Shown here: piece after piece, positions 17,327-29,414 of the stretch
Layout of the letters: the number at the start of each line of letters is the position of its first letter
Position numbering within the stretch: position 1 is the first letter of the stretch
Assembly (NCBI GenBank): GCA_965116795.1
Contig: OZ220716.1
Location: 651,362-715,361 of the forward strand
Source: Gammaproteobacteria bacterium
GTDB lineage: Bacteria > Pseudomonadota > Gammaproteobacteria > JAJFKG01
Direction: 5' to 3'
Length of the DNA: 64,000 nucleotides
The notes under the pieces: generated by a model
The model's input: only the letters and a program-made list of their open reading frames with translations
What the model was told of the DNA's origin: nothing
Database searches by the model: none
Position numbers and translations under genes: made by a program

Positions 17327-17419
17327 TTTAAAATTTTGTAAAATAACAGAAATAAAGTTTAACATTTTTGAACACACATAAAAATAATAGTCTCATTTAC
17401 TAGTTAGATAAGACAAAAG

Positions 17420-17522
17420 ACTAGATTCTGGATCCTTGACTACTCAAGGACAAGCTCGCATCCCTGGATAATCTCCGATTTCCAGGGCAAGGTTTTATAC
17501 ATGCTCTCCAGAATGACAGCCA
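17420..17522. repeat. MITE-like repeat, family A (long copy)
   Basis: Shares ctggatccttgactactcaaggacaagctcgc and ctctccagaatgaca with the 57082 copy. Confidence 0.7.
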
Positions 17523-21073: not shown

Positions 21074-21139
21074 GAAAACGTTAATAAAACTGGGCGTAGC
21101 ATGGCAATGACGATTGGGCAGACCAACGAGGAGTCAATA

Positions 21140-22522
21140 ATGAAACAACTTAGAATTACAACCAGGTTAAACCGTTTTGGTCTATGCATGGCCGTATTAT
21201 GTGCCTTGGTAAGCCATGCTGCATGGGCAGCAACTACTAATGCAACCGACAAAGGCATTTTCAATTCTGGTGTGTTTGACGTGGGTGCGTATGGTAATAC
21301 CGAGTTTGGCTTCATCCTGCAAACTAAGCTATCTGGCTATTTAGGCGACAGCGGTCGTCAAGCAATGGCGCTGGAATTAAGTGGTGGCCCTAAAACAATG
21401 CGGGTTAATGCAACCTATGGATTAGCATTAACATCAAAGCAACGCCTTAAATTAACCTTTGAACGCTTAGATCAAGAACTTGATTTTGACTTTGATTCTG
21501 GCAACGTAAGCCGTTGGGTCGGGCAAAATGCAGTGGGTGCCGGTTATGCATATTTATTTGATAACCCGTATATTAATGCATTTAATCTGGGTGGTTATTT
21601 CTCAAATTCGCCAAGTAGACACCTTTCTTCGAAAGATAAGCCATTTGATGATGAGACTAACACCGGTTATTTAGAACCGGAAAAACGTCATATCGCCGGT
21701 GCTAACAGTGGTAATGTGCATGCTGATCTAACCGTGACTCCATGGCCGTACGGCCGTTTAACCGGCGGTATGGATTACGACATTGTACGCTTTGATACCA
21801 AGTATCGTGATTATGATGTCGATGGCTTAGGTGGCCACGTGAGATTAACTCAGCGTATCTTCCCACAATTAAAAGCCACCTTTGCGTCTGAGTTTCGCCA
21901 AAATCAACGTGAATACCTAGGTGAAATTGGTTGGTTGTTACCATCACCACGTGGCACACAGTTAGAGTTGGTAGCATTATTAGATTATGTCGATAATTTA
22001 GCAACTGAACGTGACTTTTACACCAGCGGTGCACGTTTGAATTTATCACTCAATCCAGGCGATGGCACTTATAGTGAGTTAGCTAAACAACGTCATGCTG
22101 ATCTATTAACGTGGACACGTACTCCAGCAGTACGTATGTCGACTGTGTTGGCTGTGACGGATAACAAAGTGTCGGCGTATATCCGAGGGTTGTATGTGTC
22201 AGAACTTGTTGATGGGCCTGTTGGTAGAGTTGTGCGTGGTTGGACAGTAACGGAAGCGCAAGGCTTCAATCTTAACGAAGCTATTGCGATAGATTTATTT
22301 AACTATAATAGCAATTCTGGAGAGGCAGTTATAGAGTACATAGACTCGCCAACTGGTGGAATTCAAAATCTCAGAATCACCCGTTCGGATGTTAGAGGAG
22401 TGGTAATAGACTCTAATTCTGCGTGGGTAGCCACTAGTACAGGATTTAGGTGTGATGTGCCAGCTGTTGAAGTTGATAACGCTATAAATAGATGCCGTTT
22501 CCTCGCAGCAAAGCAGCATTAA
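21140..22522 (+). CDS. Secreted / outer-membrane-candidate protein, paralog A of a two-member family, function unknown
   Basis: RBS gaggag then ATG at 21140. Signal peptide MKQLRITTRLNRFGLCMAVLCALVSHAAWAA. Shares a ~330 aa beta-rich core with the protein at 27775 (AYAYLFDNPY, LGGYFS-SPS, REYLG-IGWLLPS, WTRTPAVRMS-VLA). Confidence 0.8.
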   Translation: MKQLRITTRLNRFGLCMAVLCALVSHAAWAATTNATDKGIFNSGVFDVGAYGNTEFGFILQTKLSGYLGDSGRQAMALELSGGPKTMRVNATYGLALTSKQRLKLTFERLDQELDFDFDSGNVSRWVGQNAVGAGYAYLFDNPYINAFNLGGYFSNSPSRHLSSKDKPFDDETNTGYLEPEKRHIAGANSGNVHADLTVTPWPYGRLTGGMDYDIVRFDTKYRDYDVDGLGGHVRLTQRIFPQLKATFASEFRQNQREYLGEIGWLLPSPRGTQLELVALLDYVDNLATERDFYTSGARLNLSLNPGDGTYSELAKQRHADLLTWTRTPAVRMSTVLAVTDNKVSAYIRGLYVSELVDGPVGRVVRGWTVTEAQGFNLNEAIAIDLFNYNSNSGEAVIEYIDSPTGGIQNLRITRSDVRGVVIDSNSAWVATSTGFRCDVPAVEVDNAINRCRFLAAKQH

Positions 22523-22581: not shown

Positions 22582-22620
22582 ACCCCAGAAAGGTAACTTT
22601 CTGGGGTTTTTTCTTTCTTT
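22582..22620 (+). terminator. Rho-independent terminator after paralog A
   Basis: Stem aaccccagaaag/ctttctggggtt followed by tttttctttc. Confidence 0.7.
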
Positions 22621-22629
22621 TCCATCATC

Positions 22630-22821
22630 CCAGCGGCTTGACCCAAAGGTTTTTATACAAGTAATACACCGACCTTGCTCTCCCCAGCCATCACCTCGCG
22701 GCTTGACTCAAAGGCCTCTACGCAAGTAACGCAACTATCTCCTCCCATGGTCGTAACCACAAGTAATGCACCTATCCCCTCCCTACGGCCGTCACCCCGC
22801 GATCAAGTCGCGGGGTGACGG
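22630..22821. repeat. Repeat family C: tandem degenerate units ending in hairpin ccccgcgatcaagtcgcgggg
   Basis: Repeated cgcggcttgac.caaagg...tacgcaagtaa.gca.c...cctccc units. Related copies at 27068 and 39131. Confidence 0.65.
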
Positions 22822-22916
22822 TTGTAAGAAAGCGACAGATACTTGCATTAATAGATTTTTTGTGCAATAAGTATAGGAAATTCCTATACAGCTCTATAAG
22901 ATAATCTTACATACCC

Positions 22917-23155
22917 ATGAAAGAAATTACGCGACATCTCGAAAGCTATATTATTCAATCACTTACGTCATTTCCGGCGGTATACATTGCTGGCCCTAGG
23001 CAATCCGGCAAGACCACCCTGGTACGACATATTGCCGCCAATCACCATCCGGCACGTTATATTACCTTTGATGATTTACAAATGCGTTCAGCAGCGGAGC
23101 ACGATCCAGACGCATTTTTACGCAGTCTAACCGGTGCAGTGGTATTAGATGAAGT
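22917..23155 (+). pseudogene. AAA+ ATPase (DUF4143 family), N-terminal fragment disrupted by an IS66 insertion
   Basis: Walker A GPRQSGKTTL. Reads ...VVLDEV and then enters the IS. The C-terminal part resumes at 25863. Confidence 0.75.
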
Positions 23156-23339
23156 GTATGCTTCCAGTACCGTTGCGTGACAGCCATCAATCTGTCAATT
23201 ATTCTGTGTAGGGGCAATTTATTTTTTTGATTTTGCCATTGTGCTTTTTTCCGACTTGCAATTTGAAAATAATGGGATCAGACTTGTTTCCAGGTCAGGT
23301 TATTTCTGACTGACCAATGGATGAAACAAGGATTATGTT

Positions 23340-24973
23340 GTGAAGAAACCGGAAACGATTGATTTAAGCCATGCAGAAGCAGAGTCATTACTGTCACGAC
23401 TTGAAACAGGTAATCTATCAGACACCGATCGCAAGCTATGCAGCAGTGCACTACGCATGGTATTTTGGTTGCAAGGTCAATTAACCGAAGCCAAACTCAG
23501 TATCCGTCGATTGAAGAGAATATTTGGGATCTGCAGCGAAAAACAGGGGTAAAAGGTACATCAACGTCGGCAAGTTCTTCTGACAAAGTGCCAAAAGACA
23601 CTGACAACGTTAAGGAAGATGATGTATCTGAGCAATCAAACAAAGGGCATGGACGCTATAGCGCAGATGATTATGTTGCAGCAGAAGTTCACAAAGTGAG
23701 TGATGAACGTTACTACCCAGGTGCACATTGCTTACATGTTGATTGTAAAGGCCGTTTATATTTATGGAATAAACCATCAAAAGTGATCCGTTTGTTAGGC
23801 CAACCAATGGCGCGGGTTGTACGTTATGACAGAGAGGTCTATCGTTGCGGATTGTGTTTAACGTTATTTACAGTGCCGTTACCAAAAGAAAGCGGCAAAG
23901 ATGTCTATAGCGATAGTTTCAAAGCGGTATTGGCGGTGAATCACTATGTATTTGGTTTGCCATTTTATCGGATAGCGAAGTATCACGAAGCGCAAGGCAT
24001 TCCATTACCGACATCGAATCAATTTGCGTGCATGGAGACGGTGTTTAATCACGTACTTCCTGTTTATCAAGCATTGCAACGTACTGCGGCCAACGGCGAG
24101 TTGGTCCAATACGATGACACCACAGCGAAGGTCCAAAGCCTCGTGTTAGAAAACCAGGCGCTAGAAGAAAAAGCACGTCGTGGCATATTTACAACAGCGG
24201 CACTATCAAAAGTAGGTGATAACGAAGTGGTATTAGTCTTTACAGGTCGCTCACATGGTGGTGAGAATATCACAGCGTTATTGCGCAAACGTGATACTGA
24301 GTTAGGGTCTGTTATTTTAATGTCAGATGCGCTGAGTCGAAACCGCATCAAAGACGAGTCGATTGCCGAACAGACGCAAGTTAGCTATTGTTTAACCCAT
24401 GCCAGACGCTATTTTTTCGAGTGCAAAGACGTTTATCCGAAGGTATGTCAGCCAGTACTAAACTGGATTGGGCAAGTGTATCGACACGAGCGTCATTGTA
24501 AAACATACGGCTATACACCAGAGCAACGCCTGCATTATCATCGTCGTCATTCGAAACCGATAATGAAACAGCTACGGCGATTTTTAGAACAATGTGTTCG
24601 AAAACGCTGGGCGGAGCCTAACAGTAGTGCTGGCAAAGCTATCAATTATATGCGCAACCATTTTCGAGAGTTAACGTTATTTTTATCTGTTCTTGGTGCA
24701 GTGCTAGATAACAATGATTCTGAGCGTTTAATTAAGATTGCACCCGTGATGTATCGTAAGAATTCACAACAATATCGTACCACTTATGGTGCTATGGTTG
24801 GCGACGTGTTGATGAGTGTATTATTCACGGCGCAATATGCTGGTGTTGACCCAGTGGATTATTTACAAAGTTTATTGTTGCATAAAGATGAGTTACAACA
24901 GCGTGCTAACGATTGGTTACCTTGGCATTATAAGGACACACTCAACACCAAGGCATTAGCCAAAGCGGCCTAA
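23340..24973 (+). pseudogene. IS66 TnpC transposase, apparently frameshifted near 23440-23550
   Basis: The N-terminal leucine-zipper part sits in the 23340-23552 frame and the remaining 511 aa in the 23438-24973 frame, with a CxxC zinc-finger region (YRCGLCLTLF). Confidence 0.65.
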
Positions 24974-25332
24974 GCCGCTTTGGCAGGTAGAGACTTCCAG
25001 TTTTGTTGACAATTAGCGGTAATGGGATTGCCGTTATACAGTAAGATATTCAGTGTGCTGGCAGTTAATTCAATCGTCGTGCAATTATCTTGTGGCCACC
25101 ACTGAAGTCGTCCTCTGGACAGTCGTTTATGACATAGCCAGAAACCTTGGCCATCGTAGGTCAGCAGTTTGATGGCGTTACGACGACGATTGGTAAAGAC
25201 AAATACCGTGCCATTAAAGGGGTCATTGTACATGTTAGCTTGGCAGACTCGACACAAACCTTCGATACCGGCTCTGAAGTCCACCGGTTCTTTGGCTAAT
25301 AAAATGCGGTGTTGAGGCGTTATTTGCAACAT
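24970..25332 (-). CDS. IS66 Orf2 (TnpB)
   Basis: DFRAGIEGLCRVCQ...DPFNGTVFVFTNRRRNAIKLLTYDGQGFWLCHKRLSRGRLQW, the classic IS66 Orf2. Confidence 0.8.
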   Translation of the reverse strand: MLQITPQHRILLAKEPVDFRAGIEGLCRVCQANMYNDPFNGTVFVFTNRRRNAIKLLTYDGQGFWLCHKRLSRGRLQWWPQDNCTTIELTASTLNILLYNGNPITANCQQNWKSLPAKAA

Positions 25333-25342
25333 CCGTTTATCC

Positions 25343-25780
25343 TCAGCACAGTGTTTTCAATAGTTGGGCTGTTGATGTGACATCCGCTAGACGAATAGCC
25401 ACATGCAGACCATGTGGGTAATGGATAGTCAACTCACACGCGGCCGTTTGTATTGCGATGTTGGTTTGAGGTGCTTTGTTCTTAATTGGTTTGACGGTGA
25501 CAAAGTGTGGTGTTGTTTTACTTGATACGGCTTTTTGCTCACGCCAGCGTTTTAGTTGAGAATGATTTATTCTTAATGACTTCAGTTTTGAGAATGGTAT
25601 GCCGTTATTAAAGGCGCGAACAGTTGCTTGGCGTAACGCTAGTGGCACAGGCGCATTGCTAGATTTGTTAGCCCGCCATTGTTCAAACTGTTGTTGCAAT
25701 TGATCGAATGATGACGAATTTGCAATCTGTTTTTTACTACGTAAAGTTGTGCTGTGCGTTTTTGATTTCCTTGTTCCCAT
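25343..25780 (-). CDS. IS66 Orf1 (TnpA)
   Basis: Its ~145 aa size and position immediately upstream of Orf2 on the same strand are as expected for Orf1. Confidence 0.6.
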   Translation of the reverse strand: MGTRKSKTHSTTLRSKKQIANSSSFDQLQQQFEQWRANKSSNAPVPLALRQATVRAFNNGIPFSKLKSLRINHSQLKRWREQKAVSSKTTPHFVTVKPIKNKAPQTNIAIQTAACELTIHYPHGLHVAIRLADVTSTAQLLKTLC

Positions 25781-25862
25781 TAAAATGTCCTCTTGATACT
25801 GTTAGCAACTTCAGGCTAAACCATCAAAAAACACTATGCACGCACTTTTGCGGGAAGCATAC

Positions 25863-26882
25863 GATGAAGTGCAATTAGTGCCAGAGATCTTCAGGCCATT
25901 AAAAATCATGATTGATCATTATCGTGGTGATGCTGATGGCGGTCGCGGAAAGTTTTTATTAACCGGTTCAGCCAGCATTATGGCATTGCCTGCATTATCA
26001 GATGCCTTAGTTGGACGCATGGCATTACATACCCTCTTACCATTTTCTATGCGCGAAATTAGTGTGTGTGGTGCAAATGATTTTATTGAACAAGTGTTTG
26101 CGGCTGATTGGGATGTTACCCAAACTGATACCACTGATCTCAATACCATGTTAACTAGAGCATCATTTCCCGAGTTGTTATCATTAAATACAGTAGAAGC
26201 ACGCCATACATGGTGTGATAGTTATTTAAATACATTGTTGCAACGCGATGTGCGCACTTTATTAGAAGTTGATAAACTCGCAGTTTTGCCCAATTTATTA
26301 CGTTTAATAGCAACGCATAGCGGTAGCATATTAAATACTGCATCGTTATCTCGTACTATTGGTTTAAATCATGTTACAACTAAAAAATATTGCCTATTAC
26401 TGAATAGTTTATTTCTAACCTTATCTATACCGGCATGGTCGGTTAATCTTGGTAAGCGCTTAGTGAAATCTCCAAAGATATATTTAACAGACATCAATTT
26501 ATTAGGGTATTTACTTAATATTCACCTCAATGAATTACATCAACAAAACCCGATGTTATTGGGCCAAGTCTTAGAAAATGCGGTTGCCATTGAATTAAGT
26601 AAACAAATTGCATTCTCAAAAACACGCGTGCATTTGTACCATTACCGCACCAGTGCTGGGCAGGAAGTCGATTTTATTCTAGAAGATAGTCGTGGTCGTG
26701 TGGTTGCTATTGAAGTTAAAGCTAGCAGCAAAGTAACGGCCAATGATTTTCGGCATGTATTAACCTTAAAAGACGCATTGGGTAAACGCTTTCATCGAGG
26801 TTTTATTATTTATCAAGGCGCTGATAGCGTGGCATTTGCTAATGACTTATTTGCTATTCCGTTTAATGCGTTGTGGGCGTGA
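25863..26882 (+). pseudogene. AAA+ ATPase (DUF4143 family), C-terminal part. An ATG inside the IS right end at 25836 creates an in-frame ORF
   Basis: Resumes ...DEVQLVPEIFRPLK, so IS excision would restore LDEVQ (Walker B). The DUF4143 C-terminal region is intact. Confidence 0.75.
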
Positions 26883-27067
26883 TGTATGCGGTATGCTTGA
26901 ATTGGCTTTGTTGGCTGTGTGATGTTGTCACGGTTATGTATGTCCACTCCACACTAAATTGCACTAAGTGCAACCTACTGTAGAGTAGATTGCTAGGAAC
27001 TCCGATAACATCATCATGTTATGGGATTTTTTATGCTGGGGCGTTGTTCCTAAACCCCGCAAACCAA

Positions 27068-27141
27068 GCCTATAGATCTCTACACAAGTAATGCAACTAC
27101 CTCCTCCCGATGGCTATCACCCCGCGGCTTGATCGCGGGGG
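27068..27141. repeat. Repeat family C copy with hairpin ccccgcggcttgatcgcggggg
   Basis: tctacacaagtaatgcaactacctcctccc, near-identical to the 22700-22760 units. Confidence 0.65.
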
Positions 27142-27701
27142 CCAGGGAATCGTGTGTATTTTCTGATGCTTACTATGGTTTTATCTCTGAGCTTGATCCA
27201 GGAACGGAAAAAGAAAGAGTCATAGGGTGACGCCAATCAGAGAATGATCGAGCCACAGATGCTTATTCTGAGTGTGGATTGGGAACAAGCGCCAACAAGA
27301 AATCATAATCTTCATTTTATCCCATAGTTACGCTCACTTAGACGTTAACAGGCTCGTCAAAAATGCCTCGAGAAACTTCAGAATAGTGCTTATTTTGACC
27401 AGAAAAGGTGTGTTTTGGTCATAACTATTGCAATTGTGTTTATTTTTTGATACCTTTCCTCTCCGCTTAGACAAGCGATTGTCATTACGGACAACACGAT
27501 AAATCTGCTCACAATGGAGCCATTGCAGATACAAAGCAGCAGAAGTTGCTTGGGATATTAGATAGCAAGGTTGCATATCACTCGCGCAGGCAAGCGCACG
27601 TTAAAACATTATAAAACAGCAATTTGACACAATACTGAATAGATAAATCAAGATGATTTGTTTTTAATTAAAACTAATACCAATAGTGTATTTGGTTTTA
27701 A

Positions 27702-27774: not shown

Positions 27775-29316
27775 ATGAAAACAGGCAATGCTTGTAGTAA
27801 GCAATTTATTTTCGGCACATTAATCGCAGCAACTATCATGGCAGTTGGTTTGATATCAAGCCAAGTAATCGCTGAGGTAGCAGAACAATCGGCGATCCAA
27901 CCAGCACCGATCCAAGCAAATTACAGTGATACTGGCAGCCATTTATTTAGTTCAGGCACATTAAGTACGGGTGGTTATTACGATACGACATTGGGCGCGT
28001 TTGCCGATGGTAAGTTGTCAGCCTATCTTGGTGGCAGTGACCAACATGCTGTAGCGTTAGAATTTGTCGGTGGTGCTAACCAATACCGAGTGAATACAAC
28101 GTACGGTTTTGCATTAACCGATAACCAACGAATTAAACTCACCTACGATTATCTAACCCAATACCACAATTTTAAGTTTGATTTAGGCGACACTAATCGT
28201 TGGGTAAAACAACATGCAGTGGGTGGTGCGTACGCGTACTTGTTTGATAACCCCTACGTAGAATCGATTGAAGTAGGTGGTTACTACTCGACATCACCAA
28301 GCCAAGGCTTATCAACTCAAACTGAAACAACAGACACAACTATCAAAACCAATGAACGTCGTATTGCCGGTGCTACCAGTTGGCATGCCTACACTGATTT
28401 AGCATTACGTTTATGGCCGCACAGTCGTTTGATCGGTGGTATGGACTATGACTATGTCAATTTTGATACCCAGAACTCCAACACGAAAACGGTTAACGGC
28501 GTTGGTGGTCACGTACAAGTGGAACAACGTGTACTACCACAAGTTAAAGTGACTGGTATGGCACGTTTCCAACAACAACAACGCGAGTACCTGGGTTCAG
28601 TAGGTTGGTTATTGCCATCACTACACGGGATGCAATTGGAGTTAGCTGCGGTGACGGATTACATTGACAGCATTGCTACCAAACGTCATTTCTTTATTAA
28701 TGGTGCACGTTTAAGTGTGGCATTAGGTACATCAAATGGTCGTTATGCTGAGTTAGATGATAACGGTAAACAAAGTCTATTAGCCTGGGTGCGTACCCCA
28801 GCTGTGCGTATGAATGATGTGTTAGCAATTGCAGATGGGAAAAGCCAGTTCCTAGATATTGATCCACAGTATGAATCAAAAACACTCATACCAGAAGCAA
28901 ATCGGATTCGGTGTAGTGCTAACAAAGATGGAGACGGAAATGTAACTAGCATTACTTGTATAAGTGATGATGGACTTTGGAAAGGAACGGTAACTGAAGT
29001 GGATTATGAGGGTTTAGATGCTCTTGTTGATGAAGAAACAGGTGAAGTGTTGGTGAATTTGAAATTCATAGAAGCAATCTACATCCCTGATGGTACAGAA
29101 CATTTATTAATGGCTAAATATAAAGATCCAGGAACTCTTTTCGAAGCAACTTTAACATCGAATTCTAACAGTTATTTACAGGTTATTGATGTTGATAAAG
29201 AAAGTGATAGTAGTCTATGGACTCCTACTGATGAAGTAGATGGCCATCTATCGTGTTCTTTTGGAGAGAATATCACTGTTGACCAATGCCAATTCCTCGT
29301 ACCAGCAGGTAGTTAA
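27775..29316 (+). CDS. Secreted / outer-membrane-candidate protein, paralog B (513 aa), function unknown
   Basis: Signal peptide. The core is homologous to paralog A, followed by a distinct acidic Cys-containing ~150 aa C-terminal domain. Confidence 0.8.
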   Translation: MKTGNACSKQFIFGTLIAATIMAVGLISSQVIAEVAEQSAIQPAPIQANYSDTGSHLFSSGTLSTGGYYDTTLGAFADGKLSAYLGGSDQHAVALEFVGGANQYRVNTTYGFALTDNQRIKLTYDYLTQYHNFKFDLGDTNRWVKQHAVGGAYAYLFDNPYVESIEVGGYYSTSPSQGLSTQTETTDTTIKTNERRIAGATSWHAYTDLALRLWPHSRLIGGMDYDYVNFDTQNSNTKTVNGVGGHVQVEQRVLPQVKVTGMARFQQQQREYLGSVGWLLPSLHGMQLELAAVTDYIDSIATKRHFFINGARLSVALGTSNGRYAELDDNGKQSLLAWVRTPAVRMNDVLAIADGKSQFLDIDPQYESKTLIPEANRIRCSANKDGDGNVTSITCISDDGLWKGTVTEVDYEGLDALVDEETGEVLVNLKFIEAIYIPDGTEHLLMAKYKDPGTLFEATLTSNSNSYLQVIDVDKESDSSLWTPTDEVDGHLSCSFGENITVDQCQFLVPAGS

Positions 29317-29414
29317 GCGATAAACCAAACTGGTCATAACTATAAAAGGATATAGGTTAGTTTAGGTTACACAATTTATTTTTTAGTAATTAGATAACAA
29401 CAAGGGTGAAAATA

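Follow-up and report, generated by a model that had tools for sequence, protein, structure and literature searches.

How did the gene for a solitary ATPase come to lie in two pieces around a mobile element, does either piece make anything new, and what kind of element is it? We addressed these questions in a 64,000-nucleotide (nt) stretch of contig OZ220716.1 from an uncultured gammaproteobacterium (positions 651,362 to 715,361 of the forward strand). This whole stretch is called the window below, and coordinates refer to it unless another locus is named. We conclude, with a probability of about 0.93, that an insertion sequence of the IS66 family split the ATPase gene within its Walker B motif, by transposition with an 8-bp target duplication.

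An IS66-family element lies within the Walker B codons of an ATPase gene

The interrupted locus consists of the following parts, which include the open reading frame (ORF) that runs out of the right end of the element:

22917-23155, plus strand: 5' ATPase fragment, residues 1-79 plus 2 nt, with the Walker A motif GPRQSGKT (from the ORF list and AAA_14)
23148-23155: left target-site duplication, GATGAAGT (from sequence)
23156-25862: IS66-family insertion sequence, 2707 bp (from its ends, protein families and identical copies)
23156-23179, plus strand: left terminal inverted repeat, first 10 nt perfect, 18/24 overall
25839-25862, minus strand: right terminal inverted repeat (from sequence)
25863-25870: right target-site duplication, GATGAAGT (from sequence)
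25836-26882, plus strand: chimeric ORF of 348 aa, Walker B onward plus the DUF4143 PD-(D/E)XK domain, no Walker A

The element begins with GTATGCTTCC (23156-23165) and ends with the reverse complement, GGAAGCATAC (25853-25862), so that its outermost 10 nt match perfectly; beyond them the inverted repeats are imperfect and extend to about 24 nt. Immediately outside both ends stands the 8-bp direct repeat that the initial annotation had proposed. This 8-mer occurs six times in the window, and the chance of a match at both exact junctions is about 4^-8 (1.5e-5). When 23156-25870 was deleted in silico, a single 416-aa ORF was obtained from 22917 with no frameshift, reading ...GAVVLDEVQLVPE... The duplication covers codons D78-E79-V80 of the ATPase gene. 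In an alignment, the restored junction ...VVLDEVQLVPEIFR... was gap-free against nine homologues and D78, E79, and Q81 were invariant. Thus, the insertion lies inside Walker B, as had been predicted from the excision.

The proteins of the element place it in the IS66 family. TnpC matched PF03050 (DDE_Tnp_IS66) with an E value of 2.5e-45 and NF033517 with 186.2 bits against a cutoff of 180; TnpB matched PF05717 (TnpB_IS66) with 2.3e-29 and NF033819 with 96.4 bits against a cutoff of 50. A third, tnpA-like ORF gave a weak match to NF047595 (IS66 TnpA; 24.3 bits against a cutoff of 74) and matched no Pfam family. The size of the element, its terminal inverted repeats and its 8-bp duplication match those of described IS66 members: lengths of 2731 bp and 2829 bp have been described, and 8-bp duplications are listed for ISPpa5a and ISPpa7 (PMC3281130). 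The earlier assignment to this family is therefore borne out.

The interrupted protein and its two fragments

A domain search of the restored 416-aa protein found AAA_14 at residues 20-143 and DUF4143 at residues 204-365, in agreement with the initial view of the target as a DUF4143 AAA+ ATPase. A search of 5.8 billion proteins returned 5691 relatives at E <= 1e-30; among the homologues listed, nearly all were 413-421 aa long and colinear with the restored protein, and the best full-length one was 66% identical. Compared with the PADLOC profile PDC-S01, the restored protein scored E 2.7e-136, residues 2-416 aligning to profile positions 10-419 of 422. The PDC-S01 family, a candidate for phage defence encoded by one gene, joins an ATPase to a PD-(D/E)XK-superfamily domain; it has been ranked the fourth most common "defence" across prokaryotes, its defence activity being without experimental validation (PMC12988326). 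The restored protein shares the full-length match and the domain architecture of the PDC-S01 or COG1373-type AAA_14-DUF4143 ATPases; unlike them, the window copy is disrupted.

Past the junction, the ORF of the 5' fragment continues within the element as far as a stop at 23180 and so encodes 87 aa; the fragment matches PDC-S01 profile positions 10-87. At the other end, an ATG at 25836, 27 nt inside the right end of the element, opens the 348-aa ORF, which joins nine element codons (MHALLREAY, 25836-25862) to native residues 78-416 (25863-26882). The outward ATG and the truncated in-frame ORF that had been described are both present; the number of native residues given with them, 340, should read 339. 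The protein collection lists the 348-aa ORF among its gene products (P0001, from NCBI and ENA), and the ORF matched the PDC-S01 profile with an E value of 4e-109, keeping about 80% of the profile.

Inspection of the 20 nt upstream of the ATG at 25836 revealed no Shine-Dalgarno sequence. A promoter and terminator scan, whose overall counts did not exceed those of shuffled controls, detected no promoter-like site on the plus strand between 24800 and 25862 and none facing out of the right end. In the closest relative of the element (locus L020), the equivalent of this ATG is ACG, and the ATGs of two further relatives (L008 and L010) are in other frames. Because neither a Shine-Dalgarno sequence nor a promoter was found, because the ATG is not conserved and because the P-loop is on the other fragment, the 348-aa ORF is most likely an incidental by-product of a one-in-three frame chance and, as such, an annotation trap. 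Presumably it is not expressed. We infer a loss of function: the ATPase gene has most likely been inactivated by the insertion.

The element is multi-copy and the insertion appears recent

Copies that are 100% identical over the full 2707 bp were found at L001, L002, L004, and L005 in metagenome assemblies. Some of the identical copies sit in other genomic contexts, for example a prophage portal/terminase region in L001. In the protein-cluster table, at least six TnpC variants of 511 aa, plus a truncated one, come from the 2.45-Mb source contig, and so does a variant that is 86% identical. Since identical full-length copies exist elsewhere and the source contig carries several TnpC variants, the element is multi-copy and has recently been active. 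At the ATPase locus itself, three things point to a recent insertion, as was initially suggested: the duplication is perfect, the fragments are undamaged and their frame can be restored, and sister copies are identical.

A scan of metagenome contigs for the inverted-repeat pattern gave 17 loci, of which L020 alone was a true relative and the rest were chance matches, and a TnpC search of representative genome contigs, a set that does not contain the source species, returned two relatives only, at 37% identity. As a separate observation, the L001 copy (3719-6425 of that locus, 3x coverage) has no matching 8-bp duplication at its flanks; it may reflect recombination between copies or an assembly chimera.

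Could the two fragments instead be naturally separate genes, or the junctions an assembly chimera flanked by a coincidental 8-mer? The one point in favour of this idea is that the protein collection records each fragment as a product of its own. Each close homologue listed is one protein of about 416 aa, the restored junction is gap-free, and an 8-mer would have to match at both exact ends by a chance already given. Moreover, the interrupted allele occurs with the same junctions in two other, independent metagenome assemblies (L002 and L003), which rules out an assembly artefact. This explanation is effectively refuted already, and its probability is negligible. Some observations do weigh against a simple account of transposition followed by inactivation. 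No uninterrupted allele was found in the databases searched, where the best full-length homologue is the 66% one, and a 29-nt pattern of the empty-site junction had 0 matches in metagenome contigs. The absence of close strains is unsurprising because the ArgRS of the host, beyond two same-organism matches, has a best match of 73%, and about 57% for named lineages. Furthermore, the flanks of the L001, L004, L005, L010, and L020 copies form no direct repeats, and the L004 and L005 copies have a common left flank and different right flanks; we attribute these mismatched flanks to collapsed repeats in the metagenome assemblies or to copies that recombined with each other. Finally, read-through from the same-strand tnpC or ATPase promoter could transcribe the 3' fragment.

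The possibility of read-through also bears on a further explanation, namely that a new functional gene arose from the insertion: translation from the element's ATG would yield a protein that lacks Walker A, keeps the PD-(D/E)XK domain and acts in a new or deregulated way. The 348-aa ORF is indeed intact, in frame, called as a gene product and still covers most of the PDC-S01 profile; tnpC and the ATPase promoter have the orientation that makes read-through transcription conceivable, and the interrupted allele is the sole allele seen, in three assemblies. Against this stand the lack of a Shine-Dalgarno sequence near 25836 and of an outward promoter-like site, the ACG or out-of-frame ATGs of the relatives, and the location of the P-loop for ATP binding on the other fragment. 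An in-frame outcome is expected for one in three insertions, and a stable hairpin at the end of tnpC (see below) stands between the tnpC promoter and the 3' fragment. We therefore consider a new functional gene very improbable and retain inactivation by transposition.

The element belongs to a convergent-layout subgroup of IS66

The genes of the element, together with the signals discussed below, are arranged as follows:

23340-23552, plus strand: tnpC orf1, 70 aa, GTG start; N-terminal leucine-zipper / FGxxSEK part of IS66 TnpC
23538-23552, plus strand: candidate -1 frameshift site GAA AAA (23538-23543) with the frame-0 stop TAA (23550-23552), conserved in five elements
23543-24973, plus strand: tnpC orf2, -1 frame; zinc-finger and DDE_Tnp_IS66 catalytic part (as called, 23438-24973, 511 aa)
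23555-23628, plus strand: predicted stem-loop, 11 nt after the AAA codon; GGTACATC (23555-23562) pairs with GATGTATC (23621-23628)
24960-24985: palindrome GCCAAAGCGGC-CTAA-GCCGCTTTGGC, 26 nt, at the convergent tnpC/tnpB junction
24970-25332, minus strand: tnpB, IS66 accessory protein, 120 aa, convergent with tnpC (PF05717, NF033819)
25343-25780, minus strand: tnpA-like ORF, 145 aa, upstream of tnpB; position and size kept in relatives

Canonical IS66 elements (IS66, IS679, ISPpa5a, and ISPpa7) have much in common with the window element: TnpC, TnpB, a small upstream TnpA-like ORF, a length of about 2.7 kb, 8-bp duplications and inverted repeats of about 20-35 bp that start with GTA. Elements of the family measure about 2.5-2.9 kb. 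The window element differs from them in that its tnpA and tnpB are on the opposite strand and converge on tnpC, so that the co-directional tnpA-tnpB-tnpC order is absent; in addition, its tnpC is split into two frames and its TnpA fits the family model weakly. Co-directional order is typical of IS66 and not strictly defining, since the ISBst12 group is not known to carry tnpA or tnpB.

The convergent layout is not peculiar to the window. It is kept in the relatives whose TnpC is 68-84% identical (L008, L010, L020, and L009, the last on a contig that ends within tnpB), and it also occurs in three loci whose TnpC is 37% identical to that of the window element (L006, L007, and L013). Public genomes with this layout, L031 and L032 among them, include a Legionella pneumophila LPE509 plasmid (NC_020522), L. 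longbeachae (CP082851), and a Ca. Megaera polyxenophila plasmid (AP017965). The canonical co-directional order was found in L011, L012, L034, L036, and L037 (Thiodictyon, Vibrio, Shewanella, and two metagenome loci). In a neighbour-joining tree of 13 TnpC sequences, calculated with no support values, the convergent elements, the window element included, clustered together. In the Legionella, Megaera, L006, L007, and L013 copies, tnpC faces tnpB-tnpA with overlapping 3' ends, as in the window, and the TnpB proteins of the Legionella and Megaera copies are 42-55% identical to the window TnpB. However, these convergent copies encode TnpC as one unsplit ORF of 540-557 aa (361 aa, truncated, in Megaera), and the 3' overlap is 45-60 nt in some convergent copies versus a 2-nt stop overlap inside the palindrome in the window.

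Comparison of these sequences indicates that the convergent layout defines a real subgroup that is already present in public genomes. We found no description of such a layout in the literature searched; ISfinder was outside the scope of that search, so novelty is not proven. The window element is thus a new member of a known family, in a little-noticed convergent-layout subgroup. The L. longbeachae record L032 (NZ_CP082851.1, deposited as a 2647-bp linear "plasmid") is essentially one convergent-layout IS66 element; an unplaced repeat contig is one possible origin, and a transposition intermediate another.

A conserved hairpin joins the ends of tnpC and tnpB

The stop codons of tnpC and tnpB overlap in the loop of the junction palindrome, and both proteins end in AKAA. 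The palindrome folds into an 11-bp hairpin with predicted free energies (dG) of -22.1 and -22.9 kcal/mol on the two strands (z about -4). In five elements the stem is paired at 100% of its positions, and at one position three standard pair types occur, a compensatory change. From this pattern it is a reasonable inference that the hairpin acts as a bidirectional terminator or as an RNA-stabilising hairpin. A strong U-tract is missing, and the constraint from coding on both strands confounds the pattern.

The tnpC gene is split at a candidate -1 frameshift site

In the window element, GAA AAA CAG GGG TAA closes orf1, and the catalytic part follows in the -1 frame. Five elements whose TnpC proteins are 68-84% identical conserve the pattern GAA AAR CAG GNN TAA, and in all five the gene is split, a stop lies nearby and the -1 frame stays open through the site. 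The residues encoded by orf1 include N-terminal ones that are invariant among unsplit TnpC homologues, and a conceptual -1 slip on the AAA codon yields a 544-aa protein that is colinear with unsplit TnpC proteins of 533-577 aa. No downstream start codon in the -1 frame is conserved among the five elements. Downstream of the site, structure prediction places an 8-bp helix in each of the five, formed by G[G/A]TACATC and GATGTATC. The helix codons ACA, GTA, and GAT are invariant, while codons for conserved residues elsewhere are identical in 15% (4-fold) and 47% (2-fold) of cases; from these background rates, the joint chance of the synonymous-site invariance in the helix is about 0.01. The helix shows no covariation across the five elements, and the slip motif C GAA AAR allows a single-tRNA(Lys) slip only and forms no X XXY YYZ heptamer. 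Because both covariation and a canonical heptamer are lacking, the split stays a candidate for programmed -1 frameshifting.

Programmed -1 frameshifting is known from the IS3 and IS1 families (IS911, IS1), where, as here, a short upstream ORF precedes a catalytic ORF in the -1 frame. Further features in common are an overlap containing an A-run that closes with AAA or AAG, a frame-0 stop close by and a stem-loop, predicted here, farther downstream. The products expected from the IS3/IS1 type are a small protein and a fusion transposase, which for the window element are predicted only. Unlike the IS3/IS1 sites, the sites here have only five A's or A4G and no tandem-slip heptamer, and the element belongs to IS66. 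A different parallel comes from the IS66 elements of Firmicutes: some Bacilli encode the leucine-zipper domain of IS66 as an ORF of its own (PMC3971601). Its separation is therefore not unprecedented, and the N-terminal zipper part is encoded apart from the DDE part there as in the window. By that paper's description, however, the zipper ORF is independent, whereas here the ORFs overlap with a conserved -1 relationship in a gammaproteobacterial host. We found no report of IS66 frameshifting in the literature searched, ISfinder being outside its scope.

How far should the frameshift be trusted? The split may not be programmed at all: it could be an inherited frameshift mutation with a truncated TnpC that works without its leucine zipper, or the two ORFs could encode independently translated proteins. 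The non-canonical slip site, the long 11-nt spacer to the helix, the missing covariation and the zipper ORFs of Bacilli (PMC3971601) all fit such an explanation, to which we assign somewhat less than even odds. It does not readily account for the lack of a conserved -1-frame start codon downstream, for a frame overlap that always spans GAA AAR, or for helix arms that are invariant at synonymous sites within an otherwise variable linker. Nor does it readily explain why the split is retained across 68-84% identity among elements whose identical multi-copy insertions imply activity. The most ambitious proposal combines all three features into an undescribed IS66 subgroup, with inverted convergent tnpA-tnpB, a shared stop-codon hairpin (possibly a bidirectional terminator) and an obligatory programmed -1 frameshift. 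The frameshift would occur at GAA AAR, be stimulated by the conserved stem-loop and provide the sole route to full-length transposase; the subgroup would span the uncultured gammaproteobacterium and related metagenome contigs. As a whole, this combination is tentative and we think it rather unlikely.

Surroundings of the ATPase locus

Elsewhere, homologues of the ATPase are solitary genes in unrelated surroundings: in L038 and L039 the homologue stands between sucA and sucB, within the operon for 2-oxoglutarate dehydrogenase, and in L040 it is next to ftsH. The L040 homologue (63% identical) is flanked by a 37-nt direct repeat, at 4787-4823 and 6262-6298 of that locus, whose copies are 84% identical; the second copy extends into the 3' end of the adjacent gene. 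The flanking repeat and the sucA-sucB location are consistent with PDC-S01 genes moving as solitary cassettes.

The ATPase locus of the window likewise lies between repeats. The 24-nt motif CAAGTAAYGCAMCTAYCYCCTCCC occurs in the 64 kb only at 22723, 22760, and 27085, within direct-repeat regions at 22716-22817 and 27078-27142, and on each side a GC-rich hairpin (CACCCCGCG...CGCGGGG) follows the repeat. The ATPase gene could accordingly be a small mobile cassette with att-like sites, or the motif could be a local REP-like repeat. An Rfam search of 22600-27300 gave no credible match.

Other features of the window were recorded in passing. Two paralogous ORFs of 473 and 513 aa bracket the ATPase locus (21101-22522 and 27775-29316); they match no Pfam family, and their N-termini look hydrophobic and signal-like by eye. 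An ORF of 1146 aa (29406-32846), also with no Pfam match, contains tandem repeats of about 24 nt (8 aa) in blocks at roughly 29985-30805 and 31584-31984. The arms of a 45-nt inverted repeat (17415-17459 and 57109-57153) are 96% complementary and 39.6 kb apart.

Discussion

Taken together, these results suggest the following course of events. The Walker B codons of a solitary gene for a 416-aa ATPase-nuclease would have been the target of an active IS66-family element, whose transposition made the 8-bp target duplication that is usual for its family. The gene would thereby have been split into an 87-aa N-terminal stub carrying Walker A and a 3' fragment that, probably by chance, falls in frame with an ATG in the right end of the element and so forms the 348-aa ORF.

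The finding of a recent insertion that most likely inactivates a candidate defence ATPase is correct, and it is ordinary biology. It adds one more case in which an active insertion sequence erodes a candidate immunity gene, here in a small genome of 2.45 Mb with many copies of the element. It also carries a practical warning: with a 348-aa ORF that still scores 4e-109, automated censuses of defence systems would count the disrupted gene as present.

For the IS66 family, the convergent arrangement of genes, the palindrome at their junction and the conserved split of tnpC would be a modest but concrete addition to what is known of how transposase supply is regulated. The possible frameshift control might be the only part that is mildly surprising to a specialist. 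If true, it would mean that translational control in the style of IS3 and IS1 evolved independently within IS66.

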